A stretch of DNA of 39,514 nucleotides from assembly GCF_004010195.1 (NCBI RefSeq), contig NC_057718.1:50683894-50723407 (forward strand). Reading direction: 5' to 3'. Shown piece after piece: positions 4,732 through 36,450 of this stretch (the stretch's first letter is position 1; each line of letters begins with the position of its first letter). Under the pieces are notes generated by a model, which searched no databases, was not told where the DNA came from, and saw only the letters and a list, made by a program, of their open reading frames with translations. Both the position numbers and the translations under genes were made by a program. Source of the stretch: Chiloscyllium plagiosum (lineage: Eukaryota).

Positions 4732-7700
4732 CTAGATAAAAGCCCTTGACAATATGGCTGAAATATCTGTATCTATATAGTTCAGGAAGGGCTGCCATAT
4801 TTTATAGAATAATTCAGTTTTTTGGTGCACCATAATTATAAGGTAGTCAAGGGGAATACATTCCATGATTAACCTGTGCCAATTTGAAAGTCCTGGAGGG
4901 CCCTCAGCTGCCCAATTTACTAAGATATTTTTCCTTGCACAAAAGGAGAGAATGGAAAATAATTTCCTCCCATGCACATCCAGGGAGGGCAGGTTCGAAA
5001 AGCCCAGGAGAAGAGATACTGGATCTACTCCAATTTCCGCTCCCAAGATTTCTGTCAGTGCATTTGCTACTCTGGTTCAGTATTTACATATCTTATGACA
5101 TGTCCATAAGCAGTGTGTGAGAGTGCCCATTTCTATTTTACATTTAGGACACATTGGAGATGTTCCTGCCCGAAATTTGCCAGACGTTCCGGTGCTATAT
5201 GAGTCCTATGGAATATCTTTAGTTGAATAGCTTGGGTTCTATTACAAATGAAGATCTTTCTGGCATTTTCCCAGATGTCATCCCACATTTCTGAAGGGAT
5301 TTCCAACCCCAATTCCTGATTCCATGTTTTAAACAATTGTTTCATGTCTTTCGAAACTTTGTTCTGTAATGAGTGACAGAGAGTGCTGACCGAGGGTGGA
5401 CCCACTGGCCATAACACTCTTCTTTCCCTATCCGATTTATAAGAGCTATCTAATAATGTGCTCTTCTTCTGCACATAATCTCTAAGTTGGAAATATTGAA
5501 AAAGGTCTCCATTAGCAGTCCACATTTCTGGTGCAGCTATTCAAAAGACATCATAACCTCCCCATCGAACAGATCCCCTAAGCAAGAAATACCTCTGGAC
5601 CTCCAGGTTTTAAATGTAGAGTCTGTGTGCCCCAGTTGAAAATCCCATGCTCCCACTATAGGAGTATAAGGAGTGTTTTTTTGTGAATTGCCCTCGTCTT
5701 GCCGCATTATATTTCAAGCTTTAATTGTAGTTAGTACAATAGGGTTTTTACAATGGTCCATAATGACTTTTGTCTTATCTAAAAACAGAGATTGATGAGG
5801 GGACTCTTTGCCTGAGAAGCCTCGAGGTCCAGTCGGATTGATTGCAGGTCACACGAGACCCCAGTCGGCTACGTAGTTTAATAGAGAACTCAGCTGATTC
5901 TTCCTAAAGTCTGGAAAATCCAGTCTTCCCCTTGCTTGTGGAAGCTGCAGCTTCTTTAATTTAAGAAGGGGCCGTCTATGATTCCAAATGAAAGAACCAA
6001 GCCAACTGTATACTTTAGGAGAAAGTGAGGACTGCAGATGCTGGAGATCAGAGCTGAAAATGTGTTGCTGGAAAAGCGCAGCAGGTCAGGCAGCATCCAA
6101 GGAGCAGGAGAATCGACGTTTTGGGCATGAGCCCTTCTTCAGGAATCAATGACGATGTTCTCCATTCCTGAGGAAGGGCTCATGCCCAAAACGTCGATTC
6201 TCCTGCTCCTTGGATGCTGCCTGACCTGCTGCGCTTTTCCAGCAACACATTTTCAGCAAACGTATACTTTATGCAATGCCAGCCTTGGCAACATCACAGA
6301 GAGCATACTCATAGGGTATAGGAGATGAGGGAAAGTATTCATTTTAATTAGAGCTAGTCTGTCTAACCAAGATATCGGGAGACACCCCCAGCATTAAAGG
6401 TCCTGCCTTATCCTCTCTAATAGGTGCACAAAATTGGCTTTGTACAGCTGACCAAAAACTGTGGTGATAAAAATCCCTAAATATAAAAAACCCTCCAGAG
6501 ACCACTGAAAGGGAAAGCAAGACCCGTCCGATAAATTGGACATACTAGCGAAGCCACCCATCGGCATGGCCTCCGATTTTGTGAAATTGATTTTGTAACC
6601 TGAGAACGCACTGAATAAATTGATTACTTGGATCAAGCAGGGCACGGATATCAAAGGATTACTAAGAAAAAGGAGAACATTGTCTGCGTAAAGGGTAATT
6701 TTATGTTTACCTGAACCAAACCTCAGAGCCATTATATTAGAATCGGCCCGTATAGCTTCCGCTGGTGGTTCAATTATGAGCGTGAATAATAACGGTGAGA
6801 GAGGACATCCCTGACAACAGCCCTACCCACACTGAAGCTATCCAAGCCTAAACCATTAGTAATCAAGGCTGCTTTGGGATCATTGTACAATATTGAGACC
6901 TCTCCGACATCGAACTTTTCCAGTATGTAAAACAGATATGACCATTCAACCCGATCGAATGCCTTTTCTGCATTTAAAGAGACTACAATTCCCGGTATTC
7001 TTTGCTGATGACAGACTTGCATCACATTTAAAACCCTTCTAATATTAATAGATGATCTACTGCCCTTGATAAACCCCATCTGATCCTCTTTTATGATGTA
7101 TGGTAAAACCCTCTCCAACCTTAATGCTAATGTTTTAGAAAGAATTTTAAAATCTACATTTAGCAAAGATATTGGCCTGTATGATGTGCAATCTTCTGGG
7201 GCCTTTCCTTTTTTAAGGATGAGAGAAATATTTGCTTCTCTCATCGAAGGCGGGAAGCAGCCCTGACTATATGAATAATTATACATGTCCATAGGTGAAC
7301 CAGCCAGTACCCCTATAAACTCTTTGTAGAATCAGCCTGGAATCCATCTGAGCTAGGTGCTTTACTGCTCTGAAGCTGCCTGATTGCATCAAGTACTTCC
7401 TGGGTTGTCAGGGGAGCATTCAGGATCGACACCTGTTCTGGAGTTAAGTCCTGAAAGGCCAGTCTTTTAAAAAAGGATTCCATCTTCTTAGCTCTGTCTT
7501 CACAATCCTGTGATTTATACAGATCAGAATAAAACTTTCTGAAGGCTGTATTGATCCTTTTGCGGTCTTGAGTCAAAGTACCAGCACTTTCCCTAATGGA
7601 CGTGATAGCTTGAGGGGCCTTTTTTCTTCTTGCGAGATATGATAGGTATCTACCAGGCTTATAGCCGTATTCATATAGTCTTAGCTTTGCAAATAATATT

Positions 7701-8777
7701 TCCCTCTTTGCTGTTTGGGTAAGTGTGGTATTCAAGACTGTCCTGAGGGCTGTAATCCTTTGTAACTTAGCAATAGCGGGCCTATCAACATACATTATCT
7801 CAGCTGCCTTCAAGCGAGTCTCGAGTAGATGCTGTTGTTCTCTCTTTTGTTTTTTCTGTGTCGCCAAGTATGAAATAATGAGACCTCACGCATAAGCCTT
7901 AATGGTCTCCCACATCACTGATGGGTTACTAGCTGTGCCTGAGTTAATTTCCAAAAAGGTTTTAAATTCTCGAGAGAAATATTTTACAAATTAACTATCC
8001 TTCATTAAGAAGGAATCCATACACCAATGTCGGGGGGGCTTGTCTCATCGTCCCTAGCCTTAACTTCCATATATACTGCAGCATAATCAGAGATTATTAT
8101 ATTACCTATTTTGCAGGACAATATGGAGTTTAAAAAGGTCGAGGAGGGAGCAAAAAACATATCAATTCTAGTATGACACTTATGTGGTTAGAGTAGAAAG
8201 TAAAGTCTCTGCCCTGCGGATGAAGGCATCTCCACACATCTACTAACCCTAGCTCCTTATTCAAATCCGCCAATTGTCTGGATCTAAGAGATATACCTGC
8301 AGTACTCTTGGGTATCCTGTCTATCTCTCGGTCCATAGTACAATTAAAATCTCCTCCTATAATTGTGTGACCAGACCCAAAAGGCATCAGTCTGGAGAAC
8401 GCTTCCGTTATAAATTTGAAGGGGTGTGCCAGAGAACAATAAAGGTTCAAAATTCTATACTCCTCTCCATTTATGAGGGCTTTGATCAGTAAGTACTGTC
8501 TAGATTCATCTTTTATCTGACCAAAGATTTTGAAAGGAAGGTTCTTCTGAATGAGAATGACTACTCCCTTTCTTTTAGAACTAAAAGATGAAAAGAAGGC
8601 CTGATCGAATCCGCCTTGTTGTAATTTTAAGTGTTCTTTATCCAGTAAGTGTGTATCCTGTAAGAGAGCTATATCAATCCTTTCTTTTTTGAGGTTTGAT
8701 AGTATTTTCTTCCTTTTGATTGGTGAATTACGCTCCTTGACATTCGAGGTGCACCACCTAATTGAATGACTAACCAT
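4732..8777 (-). pseudogene. L1 ORF2p (APE endonuclease, reverse transcriptase, C-terminal cysteine-rich region), frameshifted
   Basis: MVSHSIRWCTSNVK...IALLQDTHL, IIGGDFNC, LVDVWR..HP..RDFTFYS (APE); SYRPISLLNVDFKILSK, SLNAEKAFDRVEW, LYADNVLL, FSGYKINFTKS (RT); CPKC...HCLWTC near 5100-5160; stop at 4732. Confidence 0.9.
6018..6257 (-). mobile_element. Short fold-back (palindromic) Penelope family A pLTR element inserted in L1 ORF2
   Basis: 94-bp inverted arms 6053-6146 and 6164-6257 (one mismatch seen) around a 17-nt spacer; ~35-nt unpaired tail 6018-6052; TSD GTATACTTTA at 6008-6017 and 6262-6271; degenerate hammerhead cores in both arms. Confidence 0.9.
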
Positions 8778-9490
8778 GATCGTCCAGGCAAGTCTGAAAC
8801 CCCCCCCCCCAGGAGAAGGAACCCCACCCAAAACACCCCGAGCACAGACCGTAGAAAATTCACAAAAGTAGAAGTTCTTTAATACATTAACGCCAATATA
8901 GTTAAAAACTATTTCTAAATAAGAAAAATATAAAACACATTTAAAAGGAGATTTTCCCCCTTTGTCCCGGTGGCATCACTATATGTCAATAAACCCACTG
9001 TATCCTTTCCCAACCAGCGCCCTGCCCTCGACCCAGGCATCACATAATAGAGTAAATAAATTCGAGTGTAGTATAAAATCAAAGTTAAATGTGAGTGCCT
9101 CACCCCCCACCCCCACCAACACTTGAATACGTTTAGTAAAGATAATACAAAGTATAAACATATAAAACTATAAAGTTACAATCCCAGCAAGTAATAGATA
9201 ACTAAGTATAATAACAGAAGTAGAAAAAAAACCCCGCTGTAAAAACAAATTGAGGTAGGACAGAGCAAATGCCAGCCCCCCCCCACCTTCCCCCAAACGA
9301 ATCAACTAAACCGCCCGGCCTGTAAAAGAAAAGGAGAATCACATAGTGGATAACAAATAAATAAGCCCCCTCCCTGCTCCCGGAGACAATATTAAACAAT
9401 AACGGGGGTGAAAGGAGAAAGAAAAGGTAAACCGGTTGTGGGGGGGGGAGCAAAATAGCATCATTAGCCATACGGTTTAATTCTTACAGT

Positions 9491-10332
9491 CTATTTAAGA
9501 GAGTCCAAAAATTCTTTAGCCTTCTCCGGTGATCCAAACTTATAAACGGATCCTTCATGGCTGAAGCGCAGCATTGCTGGGTAATGCAAGGAATATTGGA
9601 TGTTTAAATCTCTCAGGTGCTTCTTCGCCTCATCAAATGCCCTCCTTTTGTGGACCACGTCTGGAGAAAAATCTTGGAATAGCATACACCATGGCCTGGG
9701 GATCCTTCCCCAAGATTCTAGAGGCTTCCAGGAGCATCTGTTTCTCTCTCTAGCATTGGAGCCGGAACAGGACCGGGCGGGGGCGCTGGTCTGACCCGGG
9801 CCTGCGTATAGCAATCCGGTGGGCCCACTCTACCCACACCTGGCCTGATCTGGACTCCAGCTTTAATATTTCAGGGATCCATTGCTCCAAAAAAACTGCC
9901 AGCTGGCCTTCCTCTTCCCGTTCGGGAAGGCCCAGCAACCGAATATTTTTTCGATGACTCTGATTATCGAGGTCGTCGATGTGCTCCTCCAAGGTCCGTA
10001 CTCGCTGTTTGAGAGCCTGGACCCGGCACACGGCCGATTCAGCAGCAGTCTCCAAGGTCACGGCCTTTAGCTCCGTCCCTCCAACGCAATCTTCAAGTTT
10101 TTCAATTTCTCGGTCGTGCTTTTACAGCACAACCGAGAGTGACTCCCACCTGCTCCTGGATTCTTCAATAAAGGCATCGATCTTCTCCTGCAGCTTGTTA
10201 ATCACGGAGGCCAGGCTTACCTCCGCAGGCAAATGCCCCGAGGCGGCCGCGGACGTCTCCACTGCTGCTGGAGAGGGGTGGGGGAGGGGTCCCCGCCTAT
10301 TGCGAGCTGCGGGCATTTTTTCCTTTAGTCAT
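9491..10332 (-). pseudogene. L1 ORF1p (coiled coil, RRM, CTD), frameshifted
   Basis: DDLDNQSHRKNIRLLGLPEREE, WAHR...RPRPVLFR, LFQDFSPDVVHKRRAF...YPAMLRF...FGSPEKAKEFL are typical of L1 ORF1p. Confidence 0.88.
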
Positions 10333-11828: not shown

Positions 11829-13552
11829 AATTGAACTGAATTGAATTTATTGTCACATGTACCGAAGTACAGTGAGAAGCTTTGTCTCGTGAGGAATACA
11901 GGCAGATCACATAATTAAATAGTATAGATAAGTACATAATAAGTAAACAGTGGCAAAAATCAAAACACAGGTACAGGCAAATGCTAAGAGTTTGTGAGTC
12001 GATTCAGTATTCTAACAACAGTCGGGTAGAAACTGTTTTGAAACTGGCTGGTGCATGCGTTCTGGCTTCTGTACCTTCTCCCCGATGGTAGAGGTTGTAG
12101 AAAAGCATTGCCAGGGTGGGATGGATCTTTGAGAATGCTGGCGGCTTGTCCTTGACAGCGGGCCTGGTAGATGGATTCTATAGATGGGAGATTGGCCTTT
12201 GTGATTTTCCAGGCCGAGTTCACCACTCTCTGTAACCATCTCCGATCTTGAGTGCTACAGTTGCTATACCAGGTAGTGATACATCCGGACAGAATGCTCT
12301 CAATAAAAGTTGGCAAGGGTATTCGTCGTCATGCCAAATTTTCTCAGCTGCTTGAGGAAGAAGAGACTTTGTTGGGACTTTGTGACAGTGCGTCCACATG
12401 AAGAGTCCAAGAAAGTTTGTTGTGGATGACCACTCCCAGGAGCTTGACACTCTTCACTTGTTCCACCTCTGAGCTGTTAATGTGTAGGGGGGCATGAGTA
12501 ACTTCCCACTGAAAGTCAATGCATTCCTTGGTTTTGCCGGCATTGAGAGCTAGGTTGTTCTCAGTGCACCATTTTCCCAGGTTTTCCACCTCCTGTCTGT
12601 AGTCTATTTTGTCGCCATCTGGGATTTGACTGACTTTGGTGATGTCATCAGCCAACTTGTAAATGGCATTAGTCTGGCATTTGGTGATGCAGTCATGGGT
12701 ATACAGTGAGTACAGTAGGGGGCTGAGTATGCATCCCTGGGGAGCTCCAGTGTTGAGTGTTAGTGACGATGAAATATTGTCCCCAATCTTCACTGGCCTG
12801 TGGGTCAGGAAACTGAGGATCCAGTTGCAGAGAGTGGGGTTTAGTCCAAGATTACTAAGTTTAGTAATCAGTCTCGAGGAGATAATAGTGTTGAAGGCTG
12901 AACTGTAATCAGTGAGTAGGATTCTTACGGAGCTGTTCTTGGTGTCAAGATGTTTTAGGGAGGAGTGAAGGGCAAGTGATATGGCATCTGACATTGATCT
13001 GTTGGTCCAATAGGTAAATTGGAGTGGGTCAAGAGTAGTGGGGAGGCTGGAGTTGATTAATGCCATGACCAGACTTTCAAAGAACTTCATGGCCACTGAA
13101 GTTAGGGCCATTGGGCGGTAGTCATTGAGACATGCTGCATGAGCCTTCTTAGGCACAGGGATGACGTTGACCCTCTTGAAATAGTCAGGGACAGTGGCCT
13201 GCTGCAGGGAGAGGGTGAAGATGTCCAAGAAGACCTCTGCCAGTTGATCTGCACATGCTCTGAGTGCACGGCCTGGTACTCCATCTGATCCCATCGTTTT
13301 CCTTGGATTCACACGAAGGAAAACTGATTTGACCTCTGAGGCAGTGACTGTTGGGGTAGGTTCGTCAGGACTTGTCGGAATAGGTGTTACCTCTGTGCCG
13401 AAATTCTGCTCAGAGCGAGCATAGAAGGCATTGAGACAATCTGGGAGGGATGTATCATTGTCTGCTATCTTGCACTGTCTCTTTTTAGAATGCTATCATT
13501 CAGTCCTTGCCATAGTCACCAGGTGTCCGTCTGGGTTTCTAGTTTGGATCTC
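11829..13552 (-). mobile_element. Rex1/Babar LINE, 5'-truncated (RT to 3' tail)
   Basis: ORF 12344..13312 GSDGVPGRALRACADQLAEVF...CLNDYRPMALTS...DYSSAFNTI...TGAPQGCILSPLLYSLYTHDC...ADD; ORF 11984..12316 IESILSGCITTWY...HPGNAFLQPLPSGRRYR; (AATTG)n tail at ~11829-11850; 5-bp CAGTG duplicated at 11824-11828 and 13553-13557. Confidence 0.9.
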
Positions 13553-18567: not shown

Positions 18568-18604
18568 TTTCCTGAAGAAGGGCTTATGCCCGAAACATCG
18601 ATTT
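18568..18604 (+). ncRNA. Minimal type-I hammerhead ribozyme motif (PLE family A), core intact
   Basis: CTGAAGA (18572-18578), stem II GGGC-TTAT-GCCC, GAAA-C-ATC; stem I is weak. Confidence 0.6.
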
Positions 18605-18657
18605 TCCTGCTCCTTTGATGCTGCCTGCCTGCTGCGCTTTTCCAGCAACACATTTTT
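18571..18657 (+). mobile_element. 87-bp solo Penelope family A pLTR insertion beginning at the hammerhead core
   Basis: Flanked by CAGGTATCTTCATTT (18556-18570) and CAGGTAACTTCATTT (18658-18672); body matches the arms at 6164-6257 and 25644-25732. Confidence 0.8.
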
Positions 18658-19261
18658 CAGGTAACTTCATTTGGCAGTTACAAAGGTAAATGCAACGTTC
18701 ACATTCATTTCAAGAGGGCTAGAGTACAAGAGCAGAGATGTACTGCTGAAGCTGTACAATGTCTGGTCAGGCAACATTTGCAGTATTGTGAACAGTTTTA
18801 GGCTTGGTATCTAAGGGAGAATACGCTGGGGTTGGTGGTGGTGGTTCAGAGGTGATTTACAAAAATGATCCAAGGGCTGTCATATGAGAAATACTTCAGG
18901 ACTTTGGATCATTACTTGATGGCGTTTAAAAGAATGCTGGGGGGGGGGGGGGGGATCTGATTAAAACTTGCAGAATATTGAGAGGCCCAGATAGACCAGA
19001 CATGGAGAAAATGTCGCCACTATTAGAACAGACTAGGCCCCAAGGGCACAGCCTCAGAGCGAAGGGACAAACGTTTGGAACTGACATGTGGAGGATTTCT
19101 TCAGCCAGAGGGCAGTTCATCTGTGGAAATCATTGCCACAGAATGTTGTGGTGACTAAGACATTTAATGTTTTTAAGACAGAGATTGAAATATTTTTGAT
19201 CTCTAAGGACTTGAAGGGTTACAGGGAAAAGGCAGGAAAATGCAGTTGAGAAACACATTGA

Positions 19262-20451
19262 GAAAACAATTCATCAACTTCATCAACACATTCCACCTTG
19301 ACCTTAAATTCACCTGGACCATCTCTGACACCTCCTTCCCCTTCCTGGACCTCTTCATCTCCATTAATGACAACCGACTTGACACTGACATTTTTTACAA
19401 ATCCACTGACTCCCACAGCTACCTGGATTACACCTTTTTCCATCCTACCTCCTGCAAAATTGCCATCCCGTATTCCCAATTCCTCCGCCTCTGCCATATC
19501 TACTCCCAGGAGGACCAGTTCCACCACAGACCACACCAGATGGCCTCCTTCTTTAGAGACCGCAATTTCCCTTCCCACGTGGTGGAAGATGCCCTCCAAC
19601 GCATCTCATCCACATCCTGTACCTCCGCCCTCAAACCCTACCCCTCCAACCGTAACAAGGACAGAAACCCCTGGTCCTCACTTTCCACCCTACCAACCTT
19701 CGTATAAACTGCATCATCCACCAACATTTCCGCCACCTCCAAACAGACCCCACCATCAGAGATACATTTCCCTCCCCACCCCTTTCCGCCTTCTGCAAAG
19801 ACCATTCCCTCCGTGACTACCTGGTCAGGTCCACTCCCTCCNNNNNNNNNNNNNNNNNNNNNNNNNNNNNNNNNNNNNNNNNNNNNNNNNNNNNNNNNNN
19901 NNNNNNNNNNNNNNNNNNNNNNNNNNNNNNNNNNNNNNNNNNNNNNNNNNNNNNNNNNNNNNNNNNNNNNNNNNNNNNNNNNNNNNNNNNNNNNNNNNNN
20001 NNNNNNNNNNNNNNNNNNNNNNNNNNNNNNNNNNNNNNNNNNNNNNNNNNNNNNNNNNNNNNNNNNNNNNNNNNNNNNNNNNNNNNNNNNNNNNNNNNNN
20101 NNNNNNNNNNNNNNNNNNNNNNNNNNNNNNNNNNNNNNNNNNNNNNNNNNNNNNNNNNNNNNNNNNNNNNNNNNNNNNNNNNNNNNNNNNNNNNNNNNNN
20201 NNNNNNNNNNNNNNNNNNNNNNNNNNNNNNNNNNNNNNNNNNNNNNNNNNNNNNNNNNNNNNNNNNNNNNNNNNCCCCACCCCCACTTATCTCTCCACCC
20301 TGGAGGCTCCCTGACTCCATTCCTGATGAAGGACTTTTGCCCAAAACATCGATTTTCCTGGTCCTCGGATGCTGCCTGACCTGCTGTGCTTTTCCAGCAC
20401 CACTCTAATCTAAACTCTGGTTTCCAGCATCTGCAGTCCTCACTTTTGCCC
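19262..20451 (+). mobile_element. Penelope-like element family A, 5'-truncated (RT thumb region, gap, 3' pLTR)
   Basis: FINFINTFHLDLKFTWTISDTSFPFLDL...IFYKSTDSHSYLDYTFFHP...AIPYSQFLRL (PLE RT); after the gap, pLTR CCTGATGAAGGACTTTTGCCCAAAAC...CAGCATCTGCAGTCCTCACTTT; continuity across the gap is assumed. Confidence 0.85.
19842..20274. other. Assembly gap (N run)
   Basis: Run of N. Confidence 1.
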
Positions 20452-24814: not shown

Positions 24815-25406
24815 AAATTACAAGAATGCAGATTGATTTTATCCAGGAGCAAAGTGGGGCTTCTGTGTTGTCAGATCTACAGCGGACATGATCTTCTCCA
24901 TACGCCAGTTCCATGAGAAGTGTTCCAAAGAAGAGTTATACCAGACTTGATTTTCAAACTTTATTTTTCTTTCCCCAGGAATGTTGCTAGACATGCTGAA
25001 CCTCTCAAGCACTTTCTGTTTTTATTTATTATCTCAGAGGTGCAGTGAAGACGATCAACTTCTTTACCTTAATTGGATAGATCTCAAGAAAGCATTTAAC
25101 ATCATCAGCAGGGTCAGACTCCATGAGATATTTTTTCTGTACAAATTGGCTGATCAGCAAAGCTCTGCAGCTTCTCTCACTCTGTATAACGTAACTTGAG
25201 AGCTGCATTTCTGATGTTTTCAAAATGAAGCATAGACTGAAGCAGAGCTCTTCTCGCTGCCTCTTTGTTTGGCATCTTCTTTTTAAATTTCCCTTCCCAG
25301 CAGATATGGAATGTGTATACTTGCATACTAAGTTAAATGGAAAGCTCTAACAATTATTCCAGACTGAAAATGAAGATAAATATACAGTGCATCCTGATGA
25401 TAGAAT
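24815..25406 (+). mobile_element. Ancient RTE-clade RT remnant; host of the large Penelope insertion
   Basis: GFCVVRSTADMIFSIRQFHEKC (~24858-24923), LYLNWIDLKKAFNIISR (~25062), SLFGIFF (~25262), VYLHTKLNGKL (~25315) resemble RTE RT motifs. Confidence 0.7.
24925..25030 (+). mobile_element. Possible very degenerate pLTR of a third PLE family inserted in the RTE remnant
   Basis: Interrupts RTE homology; GAAGAGTTATACCAGACTTGA...ATGTTGCTAGACATGCTGA...CAAGCACTTTCTGTTTTT loosely parallels the family A pLTR layout (GATGCTGCCTGACCTGCTG...TCCAGCA). Confidence 0.35.
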
Positions 25407-25527
25407 TAAAAATCACACAACACCAGGTTATAGTCCAACAGTTAAATTGGAAGCACACTAGCTTTTGGAGCGTCGTTCCTTCATCAGATGGTAGTGGAGG
25501 GCTCAATCCTAACACACAGAATTTATA

Positions 25528-25732
25528 AGGAGAAAGTGAGGACTGCAGATACTGGAGATCAGAGCTGAAAATGTGTTGCTGGAAAAGCGCAGCAGGTCAG
25601 GCAGCATTCAAGGAACAGGAGAATCGACGTTTTGGGCATAAGCCCTGAAGAAGGGCTTATGCCCGAAACTTCGATTCTCCTGTTCCTTGGATGCTGCCTG
25701 ACCTGCTGCGCTTTTTCAGCAACACATTTTCA
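25528..25732 (-). mobile_element. Short fold-back Penelope family A pLTR element nested in the family B left arm
   Basis: TSD ACACAGAATTTATA at 25514-25527 and 25733-25746; inverted arms ~25566-25646 and ~25652-25732; tail 25528-25565; empty site visible in the right arm at ~29588-29603. Confidence 0.92.
25645..25675 (+). ncRNA. Minimal hammerhead ribozyme motif (family A)
   Basis: CTGAAGA 25645-25651, stem II GGGC/GCCC, GAAAC 25665-25669, then TTC; the native stem I 5' strand is replaced by the inverted arm. Confidence 0.5.
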
Positions 25733-26162
25733 ACACAGAATTTATAGCAAATTTTACAGTGTGATGTAACTTAAATTATACATTGAAAAATTAATTGTTT
25801 GTTAAGCCTTTCATCTGTTAGAATACCGTGATAGTTTCACTTCTTTCATGTGTAAATCACAAAACCTTTTTTTAAAAGGTTGCATTCTTGGGTTAGCTGT
25901 TAACAATGGTGATAGCTAGACAATATGTTGAAGGTGTTGGCCCCCTGTGTTCTCTGTCTATGCCATGATGTTTAGATTGATTCTAATCTAAAAAGTGAGA
26001 TAACGGAGTTTTACATGAATTCATGCAGTTTTTGAGCTCAGAGTTTCTGTCTGGGTGAGGGTGGTGAGTGTGAGAAAGTGTATGTGTGTGTGTGTAGTGA
26101 GTGCAGAGTATCTTAAGTCTGTGAGGGGGTGCATGTATGAGTGTGGGAGTATGTGTGTCTGT

Positions 26163-27956
26163 AGTTGTCTGTGGGTTTGCGGTAGAGTGTGGTGCTGAGG
26201 TGTCCATCCTTGATGGAGACGCATGTGTCCAGGAATGAGACAGATTGTCGAGGGTAGTCCATGGTGAGTTTGATGGTGGGATGAAACTTGTTGATGTCGC
26301 TGTGTAGTTGTTGAAACTTGTTGATCAGTCCTCGCCATGGGTCCAGAGGAAGAAAATGTCGTCAATGTACCTGGTGTACAATATTGGTTGGAGATCCTGC
26401 ATAGAGTAGAAGTCTTGTTCAAACCTGTGCATAAAAATGTTGGCATATTGGGATGCAAATTTGGCCCCAATGCCTGTTCCATGTGTATTGGTGAAGAACT
26501 GGTTGTCAAAGGTGAAGACGTTGTAATCAAGGATAAAGCTGATGAGTTGTAGGATGGTGTTTGGAGATTGGCAGTTGTTGGTGTTGAGTACTGAGGCTGT
26601 TGCCGTGATGCCATCATTGTGCGGGATGCTGGTGTAGAGTGCGGAAACGTCCATTGTGATGAGGAATGTTCCCGGTTCGACTGGTCCGTGGGTGCTTAGT
26701 TTCTGTAAGAAATCCGTAGTGTCGCGACAGAAGCTGGAGATCCCCTGTAAAATAGGTTTCAAGATGCCTTCCACATAGCAGGAGAGATTCTCACATAGGG
26801 TCCCATTGCCTGACACAATGGGGTGTCCTGGTGTGTTGGCTTTGTGTACCTTGGAAGGCAGTAGAAGTCGCCTACATGAGAATTATGTGGGATGAGAGCA
26901 GGTAGGGAACTCTGAAGGACTGGATCCAAAGTTCTGATCAGTGTATTTAATTCACGGGTGTGTTCTTTGGTCAGATCAGCTAGTAGTTACCTGTAGTATT
27001 CCTGGTTGTTCAGTTGTCGGTACACTTCCTTGCAGTAATTTGTTCTATTCTGAATGACAATGGCTCCTCCTTTATCTGCTTGTTTTCTTGACAATGTTGT
27101 GATTGGTTTTGAGAGCCTGGATGGCATTGCATTGTGAACGGGTGATGTTTTGCTCTACCTTGTGGGTATGGCTGATGAATCTGGCATTTATATATTTCCT
27201 GGTGGTATGAGGATACATGTCAAGCCCAGGGCAGTGGCCCTCCGGTGGGGTCCAAGTTGACACCTTCTTTGGTCGCTCCTCTACAGATCCCTGTGATGAC
27301 TATTCCAATTCATTAGTGGGCTCATTGGGATCACTGCAGGCACCTTGAAAGAATTCCTGGAGTCTTATTCATCTGATGAACTCCTCCGTGTCTGCTGCAA
27401 GAACCAACGAGTCCATTTTAGTGGTAGGGCAGAAGTTGAGACCCCTACTCAAGACTTCAATCTCTTCCAGTCGAAGGGTGTGGTCCGATAAGTTGATAAT
27501 AGACTTCCCCGCAGTGATAGTGTTGTCTACTGTGGTTCCAGGGTGGGCTTTGCTATTACTGGTGAGAATGCCAAATTTCTCCAGTTTTTTGTTCTTGGCG
27601 TGCATGTACATGTGTAGTTTTGTCGCCTTGTCTGTTTAGCAATGTCACATAATTGTACTTATGTATCCTGGGTGCAGGCTGAGAGTGTGGACTCCATCTG
27701 AATTTCAAGGTTGTGGCGCCTGCTGTAGAGTTGGTGCACGAGATGATTGAGAAGTTTACGAGAGGTGCGGTGGCAAAGTCTCTCTGCGTAGTCTGTGTTG
27801 TAGGTCGACCTAAGTGGGTTCATAATCCATAATCCTTTTGGGATTTTTCCTGCTTGCCTGCATTCCTGTAGAAACTTGATGTCTGTGTCGATATGTGTGA
27901 TCTTCTTAGAGATCCTCTCCACTTTGCCGGCAGTTAGTGGTGTTGATAGTAGTCAT
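26163..27956 (-). pseudogene. PLE family B ORF: N-terminus and reverse transcriptase (endonuclease deleted), disrupted
   Basis: ATG at 27956 right after the pLTR tail; IINLSDHTLRLEEIEVLSRGLNFCPT; ADKGGAIVI (~27080); TMDVSALYTSIPH...GTGIGAKFASQYANIFM...YTRYIDDIFFLW; homology stops after RKPTDN and jumps to the 3' UTR. Confidence 0.9.
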
Positions 27957-28024
27957 GATTTGGAGATGCCAGTGTTGGACTGGGGTGTACAAAGCTAAAA
28001 AACACACAACACCAGGTTATAGTC

Positions 28025-29050
28025 ACTGATAAAACTACACAGTGACATCAACAATTTTCATCCCACCATCAAACTCACCATGGACTACTCTCGACTGTCT
28101 GTCTCATTCTTGGACACATGCATCTCCATCAAGGATGGACACCTCAGCACCACACTCCACCGCAAACCCACAGACAACCTCACAATGCTACACTTCTCCA
28201 GCTTCAACCCAAAACATATTAAAACAGCCATTCCCTATGGCCAAGCCCTAATCATACACCACATCTGCTCAGATGAGAAGGAGCGTGACTGACACCTGTA
28301 AGTACTCAGGGATGCCCTCACAAGAACGGAGTACAATGCCCAACTCATCGACTGCCAGTTCCAACGAGCCACAGCAAGGAACCGTAATGACCTTCTCAGG
28401 AGACAGACATGTGCTGCAACCGACAGGGTACCCTTCGTTGTTCAGTATCTCCCAGGAGCTGAAAAATTACACCATGTTCTTCATGACCTGCAACACATTA
28501 TCAATGAGGATGAGCACCTCACCACGACCTTCCCCACACCTCCACTACTTGCCTTTAAATAATCGCCAAACCTCAAACAGATCATTGTTCATAGCAAGCT
28601 GCCTGGCTCTCAGGACAACTCCATACAACCCTGTCACGGTAGGCGCTGCAAGACGTGTCAAAGTGTGGACATAGATACCACCATTACGTGTAGGGACACC
28701 TCCCACCTTGTACATGGCAGGTACTCATTGACTCAGCCAACGTTGTCTATCTTATACGTTGCAGGCAAGGATGCCCGGAGGCATGGTACATTGGGGAAAC
28801 CGAGCAAAGGCTACGACAATGAATGAATGGGCACCGCACAACAATCAACAGACAGGAGGGTTCCCTCCCAGTTGGGGAACACTTCAGTGGTCCAGGACAT
28901 TCAGCCTCGGACCTTCGGGTGACCATCCTCCAAAGTGGACTTCGGGACAGGCTGCAGAGAAATGTGGCTGAGCAGAGGCTGATAGCTAAGTTCAGTACCC
29001 ATAGGGAGGGCCTCAACCGGGACCTTGGGTTCATGTCACATTACAGCTGA
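28025..29050 (+). pseudogene. PLE family B ORF C-terminus: RT thumb and GIY-YIG endonuclease, disrupted
   Basis: VSFLDTCISIKDGHLSTTLHRKPTDN...AIPYGQAL; CKTC linker (~28647); NVVYLIRCRQGCPEAWYIGETEQRLRQ; MNGHRTTI...VGEHF...AEQRLIAKFSTHREGLNRD; stop at 29050. Confidence 0.9.
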
Positions 29051-29064
29051 CCACCATTGCACTA

Positions 29065-29305
29065 TACACACACACGGATACTCCTTCATACACACACACA
29101 CATTCTCACACACACACAGGCATTCCTATACATACATACACACGGACACACATATACACAGATGTGCACACAGTCACCCACACACACCCTTACAGACACA
29201 CCTACTCCCACACTCACACATGTACCCCCTCACAGACTTAAGATGCTCTGCACTCACTACACACACACATAATTTCTCACACTCACCACCCTCAACCCAG
29301 ACACA
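29065..29305 (+). repeat. Imperfect (CA)n-rich tract in the PLE family B 3' UTR (mirrored as GT-rich at ~26050-26160)
   Basis: Direct reading of the sequence. Confidence 0.9.
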
Positions 29306-29622
29306 TGCATGAATTCATGTAAAACTCCGTTATCTCACTTTTTAGATTAGAATCAATCTAAACATCATGGCATAGACAGAGAACACAGGGGGCCAACACC
29401 TTCAACATATTGTCTAGCTATCACCATTGTTAACAGCTAACCCAAGAATGCAATCTTTTAAAAAAAGGTTTTGTGATTTACACATGAAAGAAGTGAACCT
29501 ATCACGGTATTCTAACAGATGAAAGGCTTAACAGACAAATAATTTTTCAATGTATAATTTCAGTTACATCACACTGTAAATTTTTGCTATAAATTCTGTG
29601 TGTTAGGATTGAGCCTCCACTA

Positions 29623-29659
29623 ACACCTGATGAAGGAACGTCGCTCCGAAAGCTAGTGT
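29623..29659 (+). ncRNA. Minimal type-I hammerhead ribozyme motif (PLE family B)
   Basis: Stem I ACAC (29623-29626)/GTGT (29656-29659); CTGATGA 29627-29633; stem II GGAAC-GTC-GCTCC (one mismatch); GAAA 29648-29651; palindromic AGCT in place of stem III; CUA triplet ending at 29655. Confidence 0.75.
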
Positions 29660-32120
29660 GCTCCAATTAAACCTGTTGGACTATAACCTGGTGTTGTGTG
29701 ATTTTTAACTTTGTACACCCCAGTCCAACACCGGCATCTCCAAATCATCCTGATGATAGAATATCTCCACTTGTTGGGCGAGTCATTCAAATGGAAGTTC
29801 AACTACAAAGATTCATGGATTGTTTGTCCCATGCCTGTAACTTGCCTACATAATCGAAGTGTTTCCCATTCTACTGACACATCATCTCTAGTGCCCTGAC
29901 TGATGTATTAGAAGGTTTTACCGTGAGAGACAGGAAGTCAGTCAGGCCATCTAGTGAAGAATTCAGTGTAACACAAGTCGTACTGTTGTAGGGAATGCAC
30001 CTATGAGTCGCCCCACAGCATTCTGGTGGTGTTTTTATTCTATTTCCATCAAATAAGAGGCCTCAAAATGTCTCTCAGAGTTCCAAATTATTTATATCAG
30101 TAAAGACAATTTTATTTGTTCCAAAATTGATATCCATCTCATCTTTGATGGGAATATTAGAACATTGTATTTTATTTTTGCTTTATTAAAACTGGCTCCA
30201 GGAACTCTGTTGTTCCTCAGTATATCTAATCTGATAAATTTCTATTAGAATCAAGCTATATTCATTTCTTCAAGTTTAAGATCTGAATTTTTTCTATCTA
30301 TGCCCTCTAATTTACAGATATATTGCTGTTCAATGGCTCAACATAATATTCTCTTATTTTGCTTCCATTATGTATTGATTTGGTAAGTCTGAATTTAAAG
30401 CATTCATTAAAACAAAAATCCATTACAACGTAATTTTTGCCGTAACATGACAAATGTGTTGACATTTATCAATACAGACCATTTAATATACATGTAATCT
30501 GTAATGCAACATTGAAGAGGTGTGAAGCTCTAACCTTGGCACTTAACCCTTCCAAGTACACAGCAAACTTTAAAATTACATATCTATATTCATAATGTCA
30601 TATATTATTTAGCTTTTGTAGCACAGGAGCTGCAATTGTATATCTGAAGTGATAAATACATTATCTAGATGTCACTGCTATCCAAGAGTTTCTAATATTT
30701 CCCTTTTTGAGTTAATTTATATCATTTTTTTAAATTTCAAACAAATGTGCCCGTAAGAATAAACAAAGAGGAAATGACAGTTCAGATATTCTTATTATAG
30801 TCATATAAGCTGGCAGAGATGTTACATATTTCCATGGTAACTATCGTCTGATACTTTGCAACAGTATTTTTTCCTCTTGGTTGCTATTAAAAGTTCAATA
30901 TAAATAAAAATAAACATGAAACAAGTAAGTTCCAGTTTATAATGGCTAACTTCACCTCTATTCAACCTAACCCTAATTCTGCCAGTTCTCATTCATGCTG
31001 ACGAGCCTTTCTCTATTTCCTTCAGTTCAACCTAGTTTTCCTCTTCCCTTGTTCAAAGTAACACCCTTTCCTCTTCTGTCGTGCAATCAATAATCCTCCC
31101 TTCACAGTGGAAATTTGAACTTCTCCTAGCCCTCATTCAAGTTGACACTCTCACACTCCCACTGTGTTATTATCAACACACACTCCCACCATCACAGTGT
31201 TGACACTTGCTTTCCTTTCCTTCAACAAAACACTGCTGCCAACTTCTTTCACCTTCATTGCCTCAAGTAAGCCTTCAATTTTTCCTTAATTGTTATTCAC
31301 TTGTTTTCCCAATCTTCGTTTCTTTTTTTCTCTTCCCTTTCTCCCTTCAATATTATTTCCCTCTACTTCGGTTTCATTAATTTTTATTTCCTGTCTATAC
31401 CTCTCCCCTCAGCACTCCTAACTAATCCTTCTTGACTTCTTGCTTCCCTATGCTTTAAATGTAACTACAACTCAATGGCTATCCTTCATTGGTTATTAGA
31501 CATTTTGGAATGTCTACAAGTCATATTTTATCATTAAAAGTAATTTCTTCCATTTATTAATGGTGATTTTCTCCACTGAATTCTGTCAGAAAGAATTTCT
31601 GATCACATTATGAACCACTATGATTAATAGCAAAATTTAATTATGTGGTTGCTGAGTTGGAAGGAGTGAGAGATATGGTCCATGTAGGTTCATATTAGCA
31701 AATAATTGCACTCAAACTCAAACTAAATTATTATTGGTAGTGGTATTATGCAGGTCCCATATACCTTCTTTATCACCCTGTCAATCAATCAAAATTAGGA
31801 TTATTAGTATTCTGATTTACTATCTGACTTGTAACTTTTGTTTCACAAATCCAGAATGCTTAAAGCTTTCAGTTTTGAAGTGACACATGCCTGGGTTCTA
31901 TTATGTTATAGAGTATTTGTTCCTATCAAGAAAGATGGCAGCCAGAACTCATGTCACATCGTCCCTGTGCCATCACACAGTTGTGAAATGATCTCTATTG
32001 TCAGTATGCATCCATTGAAGTGTGAACAAGGATGAGGCTGCCATTACTCCCAGGGTTTGTTGAAAGCTAGAAGATAACATTTGTTGTAGTCCTCTCTAGA
32101 ATTTTCATTGACAGCCATTT

Positions 32121-33574: not shown

Positions 33575-35308
33575 AGAGTCATAGAGTCATAGAGATGTAC
33601 AGCATGGAAACAGACCCTTCAGTCCAACCCGTCCATGCCGAGCAGATATCCCAACCCAATCTAGACCCACCTGCCAGTACCCAGCCCATATCCCTCTAAA
33701 CCCTTCCTATTCATATACCCATCCAAATGTCTCTTAAGTATTGCAATTGGACCAGCCTCCACCACTTCCTCTGGCAGCTCATTCCATACACGTACCACCC
33801 TCTGTGTGAAAATGTGACCCTTAGGTCTCTTTTATATCTTTCCTCTCTCACCCTAAACCTATGCCCTCTAGTTCTGCATTCCCAACCCCAGGGAAAAGAC
33901 TTTGTCTATTTGCCCTATCCATACCACTCATAATTTTGTAAACCTCCATAAGGTCACCCCTCAGCCTCCGACGCTCCAGAGAAAACAGCCCCAGCTTGTT
34001 CAGCCTCTCCCTATAGCTCAAATCCTCCAACCCTGGCAACATCCTTGTAAATCTTTTCTGAACCCTTTCAAGTTTCACAACATCTTTCCGGTAGGAAGGA
34101 GACCAGAATTGCACGCAATATTCCAACAGTGGCCTAACCAATGTCCTGTACAGCTGCAACATGACTTCCCGACTTCTGTACTCAATATCCTGACCAATAA
34201 AGGCAAGCATACCAAACGCCTTCTTCGCTATCCTATCTACCTGCGACTTCACTTTCAAGGAGCTAAGAACCTGCACTCCAAGGTATCTTTGTTCAGCAAC
34301 ACTCCCTACAACCTTACCATTAAGTGTGTAAGTACTGCTAAGATTTGCTTTCCCCAAATGCAGCACCTCACATTTATCTGAAATAACTCCATCTGCCACT
34401 TCTCAGCCCTTTGGCCCATCTGGTCAAGATCCTGTTGTAATCTGAGGTAATCCTCTTCGCTGTCCACTACACCTCCAATTTTGGTGTCATCTGCAAACTT
34501 ACTAACTGTACCTCTTATGCTCGCATGCAAATCATTTATGTAAATGACAAAACGTAGAGGGCCCAGCGACAAAACGTAGAGGGCCGNNNNNNNNNNNNNN
34601 NNNNNNNNNNNNNNNNNNNNNNNNNNNNNNNNNNNNNNNNNNNNNNNNNNNNNNNNNNNNNNNNNNNNNNNNNNNNNNNNNNNNNNNNNNNNNNNNNNNN
34701 NNNNNNNNNNNNNNNNNNNNNNNNNNNNNNNNNNNNNNNNNNNNNNNNNNNNNNNNNNNNNNNNNNNNNNNNNNNNNNNNNNNNNNNNNNNNNNNNNNNN
34801 NNNNNNNNNNNNNNNNNNNNNNNNNNNNNNNNNNNNNNNNNNNNNNNNNNNNNNNNNNNNNNNNNNNNNNNNNNNNNNNNNNNNNNNNNNNNNNNNNNNN
34901 NNNNNNNNNNNNNNNNNNNNNNNNNNNNNNNNNNNNNNNNNNNNNNNNNNNNNNNNNNNNNNNNNNNNNNNNNNNNNNNNNNNNNNNNNNNNNNNNNNNN
35001 NNNNNNNNNNNNNNNNNNNNNNNNNNNNNNNNNNNNNNNNNNNNNNNNNNNNNNNNNNNNNNNNNNNNNNNNNNNNNNNNNNNNNNNNNNNNNNNNNNNN
35101 NNNNNNNNNNNNNNNNNNNNNNNNNNNNNNNNNNNNNNNNNNNNNNNNNNNNNNNNNNNNNNNNNNNNNNNNNNNNNNNNNNTCCCTGGCTTGTCCTTAC
35201 CACCCTTCTTAAACAGTGGCACCACGTTTGCCAACCTCCAGTCTTCTGGCACCTCACCTGTGACTATCAATGATACAAATATCTCAGCAAGAGGCCCAGC
35301 AATCACTT
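33575..35308 (-). mobile_element. CR1 LINE, 5'-truncated, spanning an assembly gap
   Basis: IAGPLAEIF...VPEDWRLANVVPLFKKG (35306 downward), GPLRFVIYINDL...SKFADDTKIGG, ORF 33848..34399; tail (AGAGTCAT)n at ~33575-33594; continuity across the gap is assumed. Confidence 0.9.
34587..35182. other. Assembly gap (N run)
   Basis: Run of N. Confidence 1.
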
Positions 35309-36450
35309 ATCTAAATGATTTGGATGTGAACATAAGAGATATAGTTAGTAAGTTTGCAGATGACACCAAAATTGGAGGTGCAGTGTACAGCGAAGAAGGT
35401 TACCTCAGATTACAACAGCATCTTGATCAGATGGGCCAATGAGCTGAGAAGCGGCAGATGGAGTTTAATTCAGATAAATGCAAGGTGCTGCATTTGGGGA
35501 AAGCAAATCTTAGAAGGACTTACACACTTAATGGTAAGATCCTAGGGAGTGTTGCTGAACAAAGAGACCTTGGAGTGCAGGTTCATAGCTCCTTGAAAGT
35601 GAAGTCGCAGGTAGCTAGGATAGTGAAGAAGGCAGTTGGTACGCTTTCCTTTATTGGTCAGAGTATTTAGTACAGAAATTGTGAGGTCATGTTGCGGCTG
35701 TACAGGACATTGGTTAGGCCACTGTTGGAATATTGCATGCAATTCTGGTCTCCTTCCTATTGGAAAGATGTTGTTAAACTTGAAAGGGTTCAGAAAAGAT
35801 TTACAAGGATGTTGCCAGGGTTGGAGGATTTGAGCTATCAGGAGAGGTTGACTAGGCTGGGGCTGTTTTTCCTGGAGCGTCGGAGGCTGAGGGGTAACCT
35901 TCGAGAGATTTTGTAAAATCATGAGGGGCATGGATAGGATAAACAGACAAAGTCCCCTGGGGTGGGGGAGTCCAGAATTTGATGACATAAGTTTAGGGTG
36001 AGAGGGGGAAGATATAAAAGAGATCCAAGGGGCAACATTTTCATGCAGGGTGTGGTACTTGCATGGAATGAGCTGCCAGAGGAAATGGTGAAGACTAGTA
36101 CAATTGCAACATTTAAAAGTTAAAAATCACACAACACCAGATTATAGTCCAACAGGTTTATTTGGAAGCACTAGCTTTCGGAGAGCTCTGAAAACTAGTG
36201 CTTCCAAATAAACCTGTTGGACTATAATCTGGTGTTGTATGATTTTTAACTTTGTACACCCCAGTCCAACACTGGCATCTCCAAATTATAACATTTAAAA
36301 GGCATCTGGATGGGTATATGAATATGAAGGGTTTGGAGGGATATGGACCGGGTGCTGGCAGGTGGAACTACATTGGGTTGACATATCTGGTTGGTTTGGA
36401 CCAAAGGGTCTGTTTCTGTGCTGCACTTCGCTAAGACTCTATGACTCTAA
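35309..36450 (+). mobile_element. CR1 LINE 3' part, same family as 33575-35308 and head-to-head with it; carries a PLE insertion
   Basis: YLNDLDVNIRDIVSKFADDTKIGG, LYRTLVRPLLEYCMQFWSP; tail GACTCTATGACTCTA at ~36435-36449. Confidence 0.92.
36120..36289 (+). mobile_element. Short fold-back Penelope family B pLTR element
   Basis: TSD AACATTTAAAAG at 36108-36119 and 36290-36301; ~65-bp inverted arms centred at ~36185; tail GTACACCCCAGTCCAACACTGGCATCTCCAAAT nearly identical to 29713-29745. Confidence 0.92.

Follow-up and report, generated by a model that had tools for sequence, protein, structure and literature searches.

The window analysed here, a 39,514-nucleotide stretch of the Chiloscyllium plagiosum genome, carries a slightly decayed copy of the minimal hammerhead ribozyme known from Penelope-like elements (PLEs). 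The motif (29623–29659, + strand) resides in the pLTR of a broken element. It probably lies between a TATA/initiator start and a poly(A) site, in a family (family B) that likely copies capped, uncut RNA. Hammerheads of this kind have been described before (Cervera & De la Peña 2014, PMC4209133).

The motif reads ACAC CTGATGA A GGAAC GTC GCTCC GAAA GC TA GTGT and has the core order CUGANGA...GAAA...UH in the type-I arrangement. C3 is at 29627, the CTGATGA core occupies 29627–29633, and the unpaired nucleotide that separates positions 9 and 10.1 is the bulged A29634. Stem II (29635–29639/29643–29647) includes the G10.1-C11.1 pair, G29635-C29647. It is followed by GAAA (29648–29651) and by AGCT (29651–29654), which forms the palindromic, minimal helix III. 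H17 is A29655, which predicts a cut after 29655 and agrees with the cleavage after CUA proposed in the initial annotation. The letters and layout claimed there were found as described. A type-I descriptor with a palindromic helix III gave this single match when both strands of the window were scanned, whereas 200 dinucleotide shuffles averaged 0.005 matches each under the strict form of the descriptor and 0.06 under the loose form. The assignment to the minimal type-I hammerheads of Penelope-like pLTRs was borne out by the core order, by the AGCT palindrome and by the location, in the repeat that both arms have in common and that follows the endonuclease and 3′ UTR. An Rfam scan of the window returned no hammerhead match at E≤5, as would be expected because the motif is without a helix III hairpin. 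The Rfam miRNA matches in the window were dismissed as fold-back insertions. A short family B fold-back insertion at 36116–36289, with its junction in stem II and both arms lacking the CUGAUGA core, is the source of a spurious mir-302 match.

The term “well-formed”, also used of this copy, is an overstatement. Its stem II, GGAAC/GCUCC, has an A29638·C mismatch beside the loop, the minimum free energy fold retains only three pairs, and the isolated motif folds no better than its shuffles (z 0.32). In cofolding, the AGCU/AGCU dimer helix reaches only −2.5 kcal/mol; stem II is itself palindromic, and its duplex is preferred over the 4-bp AGCU helix. A 4-bp stem I, ACAC/GTGT, is present in the window as reported, but the fourth pair occurs in only 3 of 116 anchored copies and the stem I of the family is 3 bp, CAC/GUG. 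On the minus strand, the mirror hammerhead (25455–25491) was confirmed to have GAAA changed to AAAA (G12A). It shares the A·C mismatch, has a 3-bp stem I with a wobble and is predicted to be inactive. The G12A change falls at a CpG and is a frequent decay in the family (17/116 anchored and 10/37 unbiased copies).

The host insertion spans 25406–29748 and has a 16-nt target-site duplication, with CATCCTGATGATAGAA on the left (25390–25405, +) and a right copy (29746–29761, +) whose first 3 nt are common with the element end. Given these paired duplications, 25406–29748 is a single head-to-head insertion. The translated plus arm (28033–29748, +) consists of the C-terminal part of a reverse transcriptase (RT), a C-X4-C-X2-C linker, a GIY-YIG-like endonuclease domain (28730–29044, +), a 3′ UTR and a tailed pLTR, and is disrupted by stops and one frameshift. 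The inverted arm (25406–28024, −) contains a pLTR end, the ORF N-terminus, RT, a deletion that extends as far as the 3′ UTR, and a pLTR without the tail, and is interrupted at about 25559–25739 by a fold-back insertion of another family. It begins (28024) at the equivalent of 29679, a few bases from the poly(A) site, which may be chance. The optional pLTR “tail” (29709–29748, +) ends at the putative ORF start (...AAATCAT) and is present in 57 of 100 copies.

The RT domain matches PF00078 (E 1.9e-7; 26325–26882, −); in a PDB search, no match to this piece of the RT had an E value under 0.45. The linker, PCHGRRCKTC, has the CX2-5CxxC zinc-finger form between RT and endonuclease, a feature common with Nematis. 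The endonuclease translation shows NVVYLIRC..C..WYIGET..H..H with no Pfam match at E≤5, and the domain was labelled by what we take to be the CCHH pattern of GIY-YIG endonucleases. The insertion also shows a pLTR, an inverted 5′-truncated arm and a tail on one end, all features of a PLE. From the linker and the domain order, the element is likely of the Neptune type, with Nematis as a possible alternative placement (PMC8557442). A non-LTR retrozyme was rejected, as there is a single motif per arm beside RT and endonuclease remnants and no tandem array in the window. The locus has no same-strand ribozyme pair because the arms, both of them broken, lie on opposite strands; with neither such a partner nor an intact ORF, the window copy is likely inert. 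Elsewhere in the window there are decayed non-LTR retrotransposon ORF fragments at 6394–10121 (−), 12344–13492 (−) and 33848–36126, presumably L1-like, L2/Rex-like and CR1-like by their motifs. Two N gaps lie near 19.8–20.3 kb and 34.6–35.2 kb.

The family is abundant, with 7,583 exact copies of the 32-mer containing the perfect GGAGC/GCUCC stem in genome G000. The GGAAC variant of the window was found in 6 of the 116 copies that were anchored 3′ of the motif and in 1 of 37 copies from unbiased stretches, and G stands at the equivalent of A29638 in 837 of 893 sense RNA reads. An undamaged core together with undamaged stems was seen in 35/116 anchored and 6/37 unbiased copies. Within family B, copies show mostly neutral decay and little stem covariation. 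In 1.2 Mb of unbiased stretches of G000, three families were found with the same core and different paired stems. Family B has stem II GGAGC/GCUCC, helix III AGCU and H17=A, family A has GGGC/GCCC, ACGU and mostly C at H17, and a third, represented by one copy only, has GUUACC/GGUGAC and ACGU. The bulged base and the G10.1-C11.1 pair are kept throughout. Thus, of the core conservation and stem covariation put forward as a check on the motif, covariation holds between the three families and is weak within family B.

Fragments of family A pLTRs with their own minimal hammerhead (GGGC/GCCC, ACGU) occur in the window at 25559–25739, 6053–6257, 20319–20413 and 18571–18662. They are often fold-back hairpins, and the mirror pLTR of family B is itself host to one of them. 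The family A motif copies seen are not followed by A(A/T)TAAA. The third-family motif (G000:C20, L131–L150, about 190.2 kb into the block, +) has AATAAA directly after it, which suggests that the order of motif and then poly(A) signal recurs beyond family B.

The ends of family copies record where the copied RNA began. If the template were a linear RNA cut after 29655, copies should therefore start at +29 from C3. A 31-mer downstream of the motif occurs 24,035 times, and 5′ boundaries were mapped, by comparison with natural long copies, in the first 100 of these, listed on C1. The sample is thus not fully random, being defined by an exact 31-mer on one contig, and at one locus (L212) the boundary falls on an N gap. 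The fuzzy search for the motif tolerated up to four substitutions. Of these copies, 23 were long, 5 began at −59 to −12 and 32 at −11 to −4, with the mode at −8 (n=11). The rest began at −3 to +4 (20), +5 to +25 (15), +26 to +32 (3) or beyond (2). The whole core is kept in 70 of the 100, and none starts at the first base of the cleavage product (+29), with three within 3 nt of it. Genome-wide, 3,355 copies start exactly at C3-8 after two non-templated bases, a set of mixed subfamilies in which 49 of the first 100 are of the window's subfamily type by hand count. Counted for the window's subfamily only, starts number at most 119 at +29 and 64 at the neighbouring control position +25. Many of the 119 have prefixes resembling internal indels; the counts allow a small excess over +25. 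The assignment of the motif as the RNA-processing site of the family is not supported by this distribution.

The same pattern recurs in family A, whose own start is TCA-TT, with a mode at −4 (18 of 180) and one copy at its own cut site. Its genome-wide count of 22,585 is compatible with this, but is confounded by the filter and by subfamilies. A 3′ splice site at 29607/8 was rejected as the cause of the 5′ edge, as its AG is missing in other subfamilies and the edge is 11 nt away; no joint at this putative site was found among those listed in the RNA reads.

The modal 5′ end, C3-8, corresponds to A29619 (+) in the window, in the context TCC-A-CT, which we read as initiator-like. A TATA-like box, TATAAAT (29588–29594, +), is present in long copies as the candidate promoter, and its first T lies 31 nt before A29619. 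A bacterial promoter scan was set aside as irrelevant here. A G precedes C3-8 in 2,774 of the 3,355 copies (83%). By hand count, G is found at the control positions in 33 of the first 100 of the 119 starts at +29 and in 21 of 64 at +25 (Fisher p 4e-42), and the GC content of the fetched loci is 42%. The addition of a G through reverse transcription of the cap is familiar from L1 and CAGE work. In 30 G-start loci, most of them inverted insertions, the upstream sequence is unrelated or belongs to an inverted arm, and a subfamily with G at −9 was rejected as the source on account of these differing sequences. In several of the loci the G could be read from the inverted arm as microhomology, and in others it could not; no clean target-site duplications bracket the extra G in the 30. 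In one head-to-head insertion (L255/L256, G000:C1:22812385–22812428), both arms start at the inferred +1, each with an extra G. Family A has a G before its own start in 10 of 18 copies. A preference of the RT for adding C at any template end would fit the G equally, and would still mean run-off at an RNA 5′ end. The pattern points to RNA polymerase II initiation and capping at the equivalent of A29619. Since copies start before the motif with an extra G, and not at the cut site, the copied RNA is likely both capped and uncut.

The 3′ side of the motif carries a poly(A) signal, ATTAAA (29666–29671, +; AATAAA in other subfamilies), and a GU-rich stretch (29689–29706, +) that is likely the downstream element. 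The signal is enclosed by a predicted hairpin (29662–29680, UCCAAU-UAAACCU-GUUGGA), which could suppress it in the 5′ repeat. RNA data came from organism B, in the form of a single-cell poly(A) run (X19) of which about 2% was read. These reads are mostly 90–95% alike and may include host transcripts. Poly(A) addition sites in the family reads lie at 29683–29686 (+), about 30 nt 3′ of the uncut motif. Aligned to the window, tails join at 29683 in 282 reads and at 29686 in 330; on L227, a natural copy that matches better, the same two sites have 367 and 461 reads. Sense depth on L227 is flat over the cut site (about 1,200–1,270) and drops from about 1,360 to 380 past the poly(A) site. A genomic A-tract was rejected as the source of the tails, with no match in G000, the genome that was searched for one. 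No piles of read starts or ends were listed in the organism B alignments, and a sister run (X20) had no aligned family reads. The reads thus show uncut, polyadenylated motif RNA in organism B, and in abundance, which again speaks against processing at the cut site. As a poly(A) library cannot contain cleavage products, X19 is silent on the share that is cleaved, and its reads do not show the 5′ end either.

The model of 2014, to which the processing site of the initial annotation belongs, holds that dimeric cleavage of tandem precursors yields unit-length RNA, possibly circularised, which then serves as the template. The structure is kept across families, and in vitro dimer cleavage of PLE hammerheads has been reported (PMC4209133, PMC6765202). 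Moreover, the motif would be restored in a ligated circle, from which the long copies (23/100) could be made without a 5′ end at the cut site. Set against this, linear templates predict the +29 starts that are absent from 100 copies and number no more than 119 genome-wide, many with indel-like prefixes, and circles fail to predict a sharp C3-8 edge with an extra G. Such a processed template is therefore unlikely. The 5′-end pile-up could also be thought to mark a stall or fold-back of the RT at the ribozyme structure and not an RNA 5′ end. Many junctions are indeed palindromic fold-backs in or around the motif, and 38 of the 100 boundaries fall at −3 to +32. Yet the mode is 5 nt past stem I, where the RT would already be through the structure, and in two families, at different offsets (−8 and −4), it falls on an initiator-like A at TATA+31, with the excess of G. 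We regard a stall as hardly credible.

It has also to be considered that the fold is retained because it binds or positions the protein of the element, or as a passenger, with negligible cleavage in vivo. Minimal hammerheads are weakly active in vitro (PMC4209133), catalytic mutants were without effect on insertion in the anole system (PMC11167929), and Naiads are without the motif and yet thrive (PMC8557442). The palindromic stem II, whose duplex outcompetes the AGCU helix in cofolding, would also suit this role. Structure alone, however, needs neither the catalytic nucleotides nor a non-G H17, and both are kept in families with different stems, which leaves a purely structural role quite improbable. 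The reading that we prefer remains that of a capped, uncut RNA as the template.

Minimal hammerheads have been reported in PLEs of the Neptune, Poseidon and Xena groups of fish, as well as in the coelacanth and Xenopus (Cervera & De la Peña 2014, PMC4209133). The motif of the window resembles these in its type-I core, the bulge between 9 and 10.1, the G10.1-C11.1 pair, the palindromic 15.2-16.2, the short helix I, the pLTR location and the occurrence as thousands of dispersed single copies. It differs in helix II, of 5 bp here and 7–8 in Schistosoma, and in helix I, of 3 bp here. In the available text of that report, the motif is not located between a start and a poly(A) site as it is here, and the present 5′-end map argues against its processing model as far as linear templates are concerned. 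The function of PLE hammerheads has been called unclear (PMC8557442). Retrozymes have been linked to pLTRs in work that includes one chondrichthyan (preprint 10.64898/2026.07.22.740005).

In the anole Poseidon element PAc, unprocessed RNA is reported as the dominant RT substrate, the ribozyme cleaves only with the assistance of protein, and the tail is flanked by the two internal sites from which reverse transcription begins (Frangieh et al. 2024, PMC11167929). The likeness to family B lies in two 3′ ends separated by a tail of 30–40 nt, an RT that initiates internally, a main substrate of unprocessed RNA and, as far as that report describes, the lack of RNA reads with an end at the cut site. 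PAc belongs to the Poseidon clade and has its ORF start inside stem II, whereas the putative ORF start here is about 90 nt past the cut site. A multi-copy mRNA has been proposed for PAc; in family B, a poly(A) site within the pLTR is seen in reads. The Penelope pLTRs of Adineta vaga (Arkhipova et al. 2013, PMC3846280) share a putative TATA box and initiator, the optional tail, head-to-head inverted copies and palindromic junctions. Template polarity is a matter of debate in that work, which favours self-priming on an antisense template, whereas the extra G at the sense start of both arms here suggests a capped sense template. The Penelope of D. virilis has a TATA-less internal promoter (PMC2377424). 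The hammerhead in the mammalian Clec2 3′ UTR likewise has its cut just 5′ of a poly(A) signal, so that cleavage would remove the tail, but it belongs to a host gene and is split, whereas that of family B is a minimal dimer-type motif in a retroelement (PMC6765202). Among the titles and abstracts covered, with most subscription papers and supplements outside their scope, none assigns a cap-derived G or a poly(A) site to the pLTR of a PLE.

With an inferred start 5′ and a poly(A) site 3′ of the motif, the pLTR reads like a U3-R-U5 unit, which would put the hammerhead at both ends of the mRNA. In the U3-R-U5 LTRs of LTR retrotransposons and retroviruses, the promoter lies before the start, a short start-to-poly(A) repeat is found at both RNA ends, and the poly(A) signal may sit in a predicted hairpin. 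Family B resembles these in the putative upstream promoter, the presumed short repeat at both RNA ends and the poly(A) signal in a predicted hairpin. Unlike LTR elements, it has a PLE-type RT, and no integrase, primer-binding site or polypurine tract was seen, nor any sign of R-to-R transfer. Long copies hold no cap-G trace of such a transfer (G at −9 in 9/24, compared with G at −10 in 33/42), and R-to-R strand transfer is thus unsupported.

The pLTR would accordingly be laid out as a promoter, a repeat of about 65 nt with the start, hammerhead and poly(A) site, and about 60 nt to the putative ORF start. RNA polymerase II would initiate at the equivalent of A29619. By analogy with the anole element, the RT may begin internally at the tail/ORF junction, proceed about 130 nt to the capped 5′ end of the RNA and add a C opposite the cap, which would explain why short and head-to-head copies are so many. 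Read-through RNA, circles or strand transfer would be needed for long copies, which are envisaged to come from RNA reading through the poly(A) site. The hammerhead, in the repeat at both mRNA ends, would be inactive as a monomer until two copies pair through AGCU. As the AGCU helix is weak and the stem II duplex is favoured, this pairing likely needs the help of a protein. It is conceivable, at somewhat less than an even chance, that cleavage following this pairing strips the cap and tail from a minority of transcripts as a self-limiting side path. The fuller proposal is more doubtful and is offered tentatively: in a U3-R-U5-like pLTR, with the cap 8 nt before the first hammerhead and the poly(A) tail about 30 nt after the second, dimer cleavage in cis might strip both ends and act as an off-switch, or as a route to circularisation, in competition with reverse transcription. 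If true, this would account both for the need of the motif for a dimer and for insertions from uncut RNA. Since about 70 nt take in the inferred start, the predicted cut and the poly(A) site, a single short construct would suffice to test it.

Elements of this kind are expected to carry the ribozyme. The added value of the family lies in a test of the open question of what PLE hammerheads do. Its tens of thousands of copies record the ends of their template RNA, and these point to a capped sense start and not to the cut site, in agreement with the sole in vitro PLE system.
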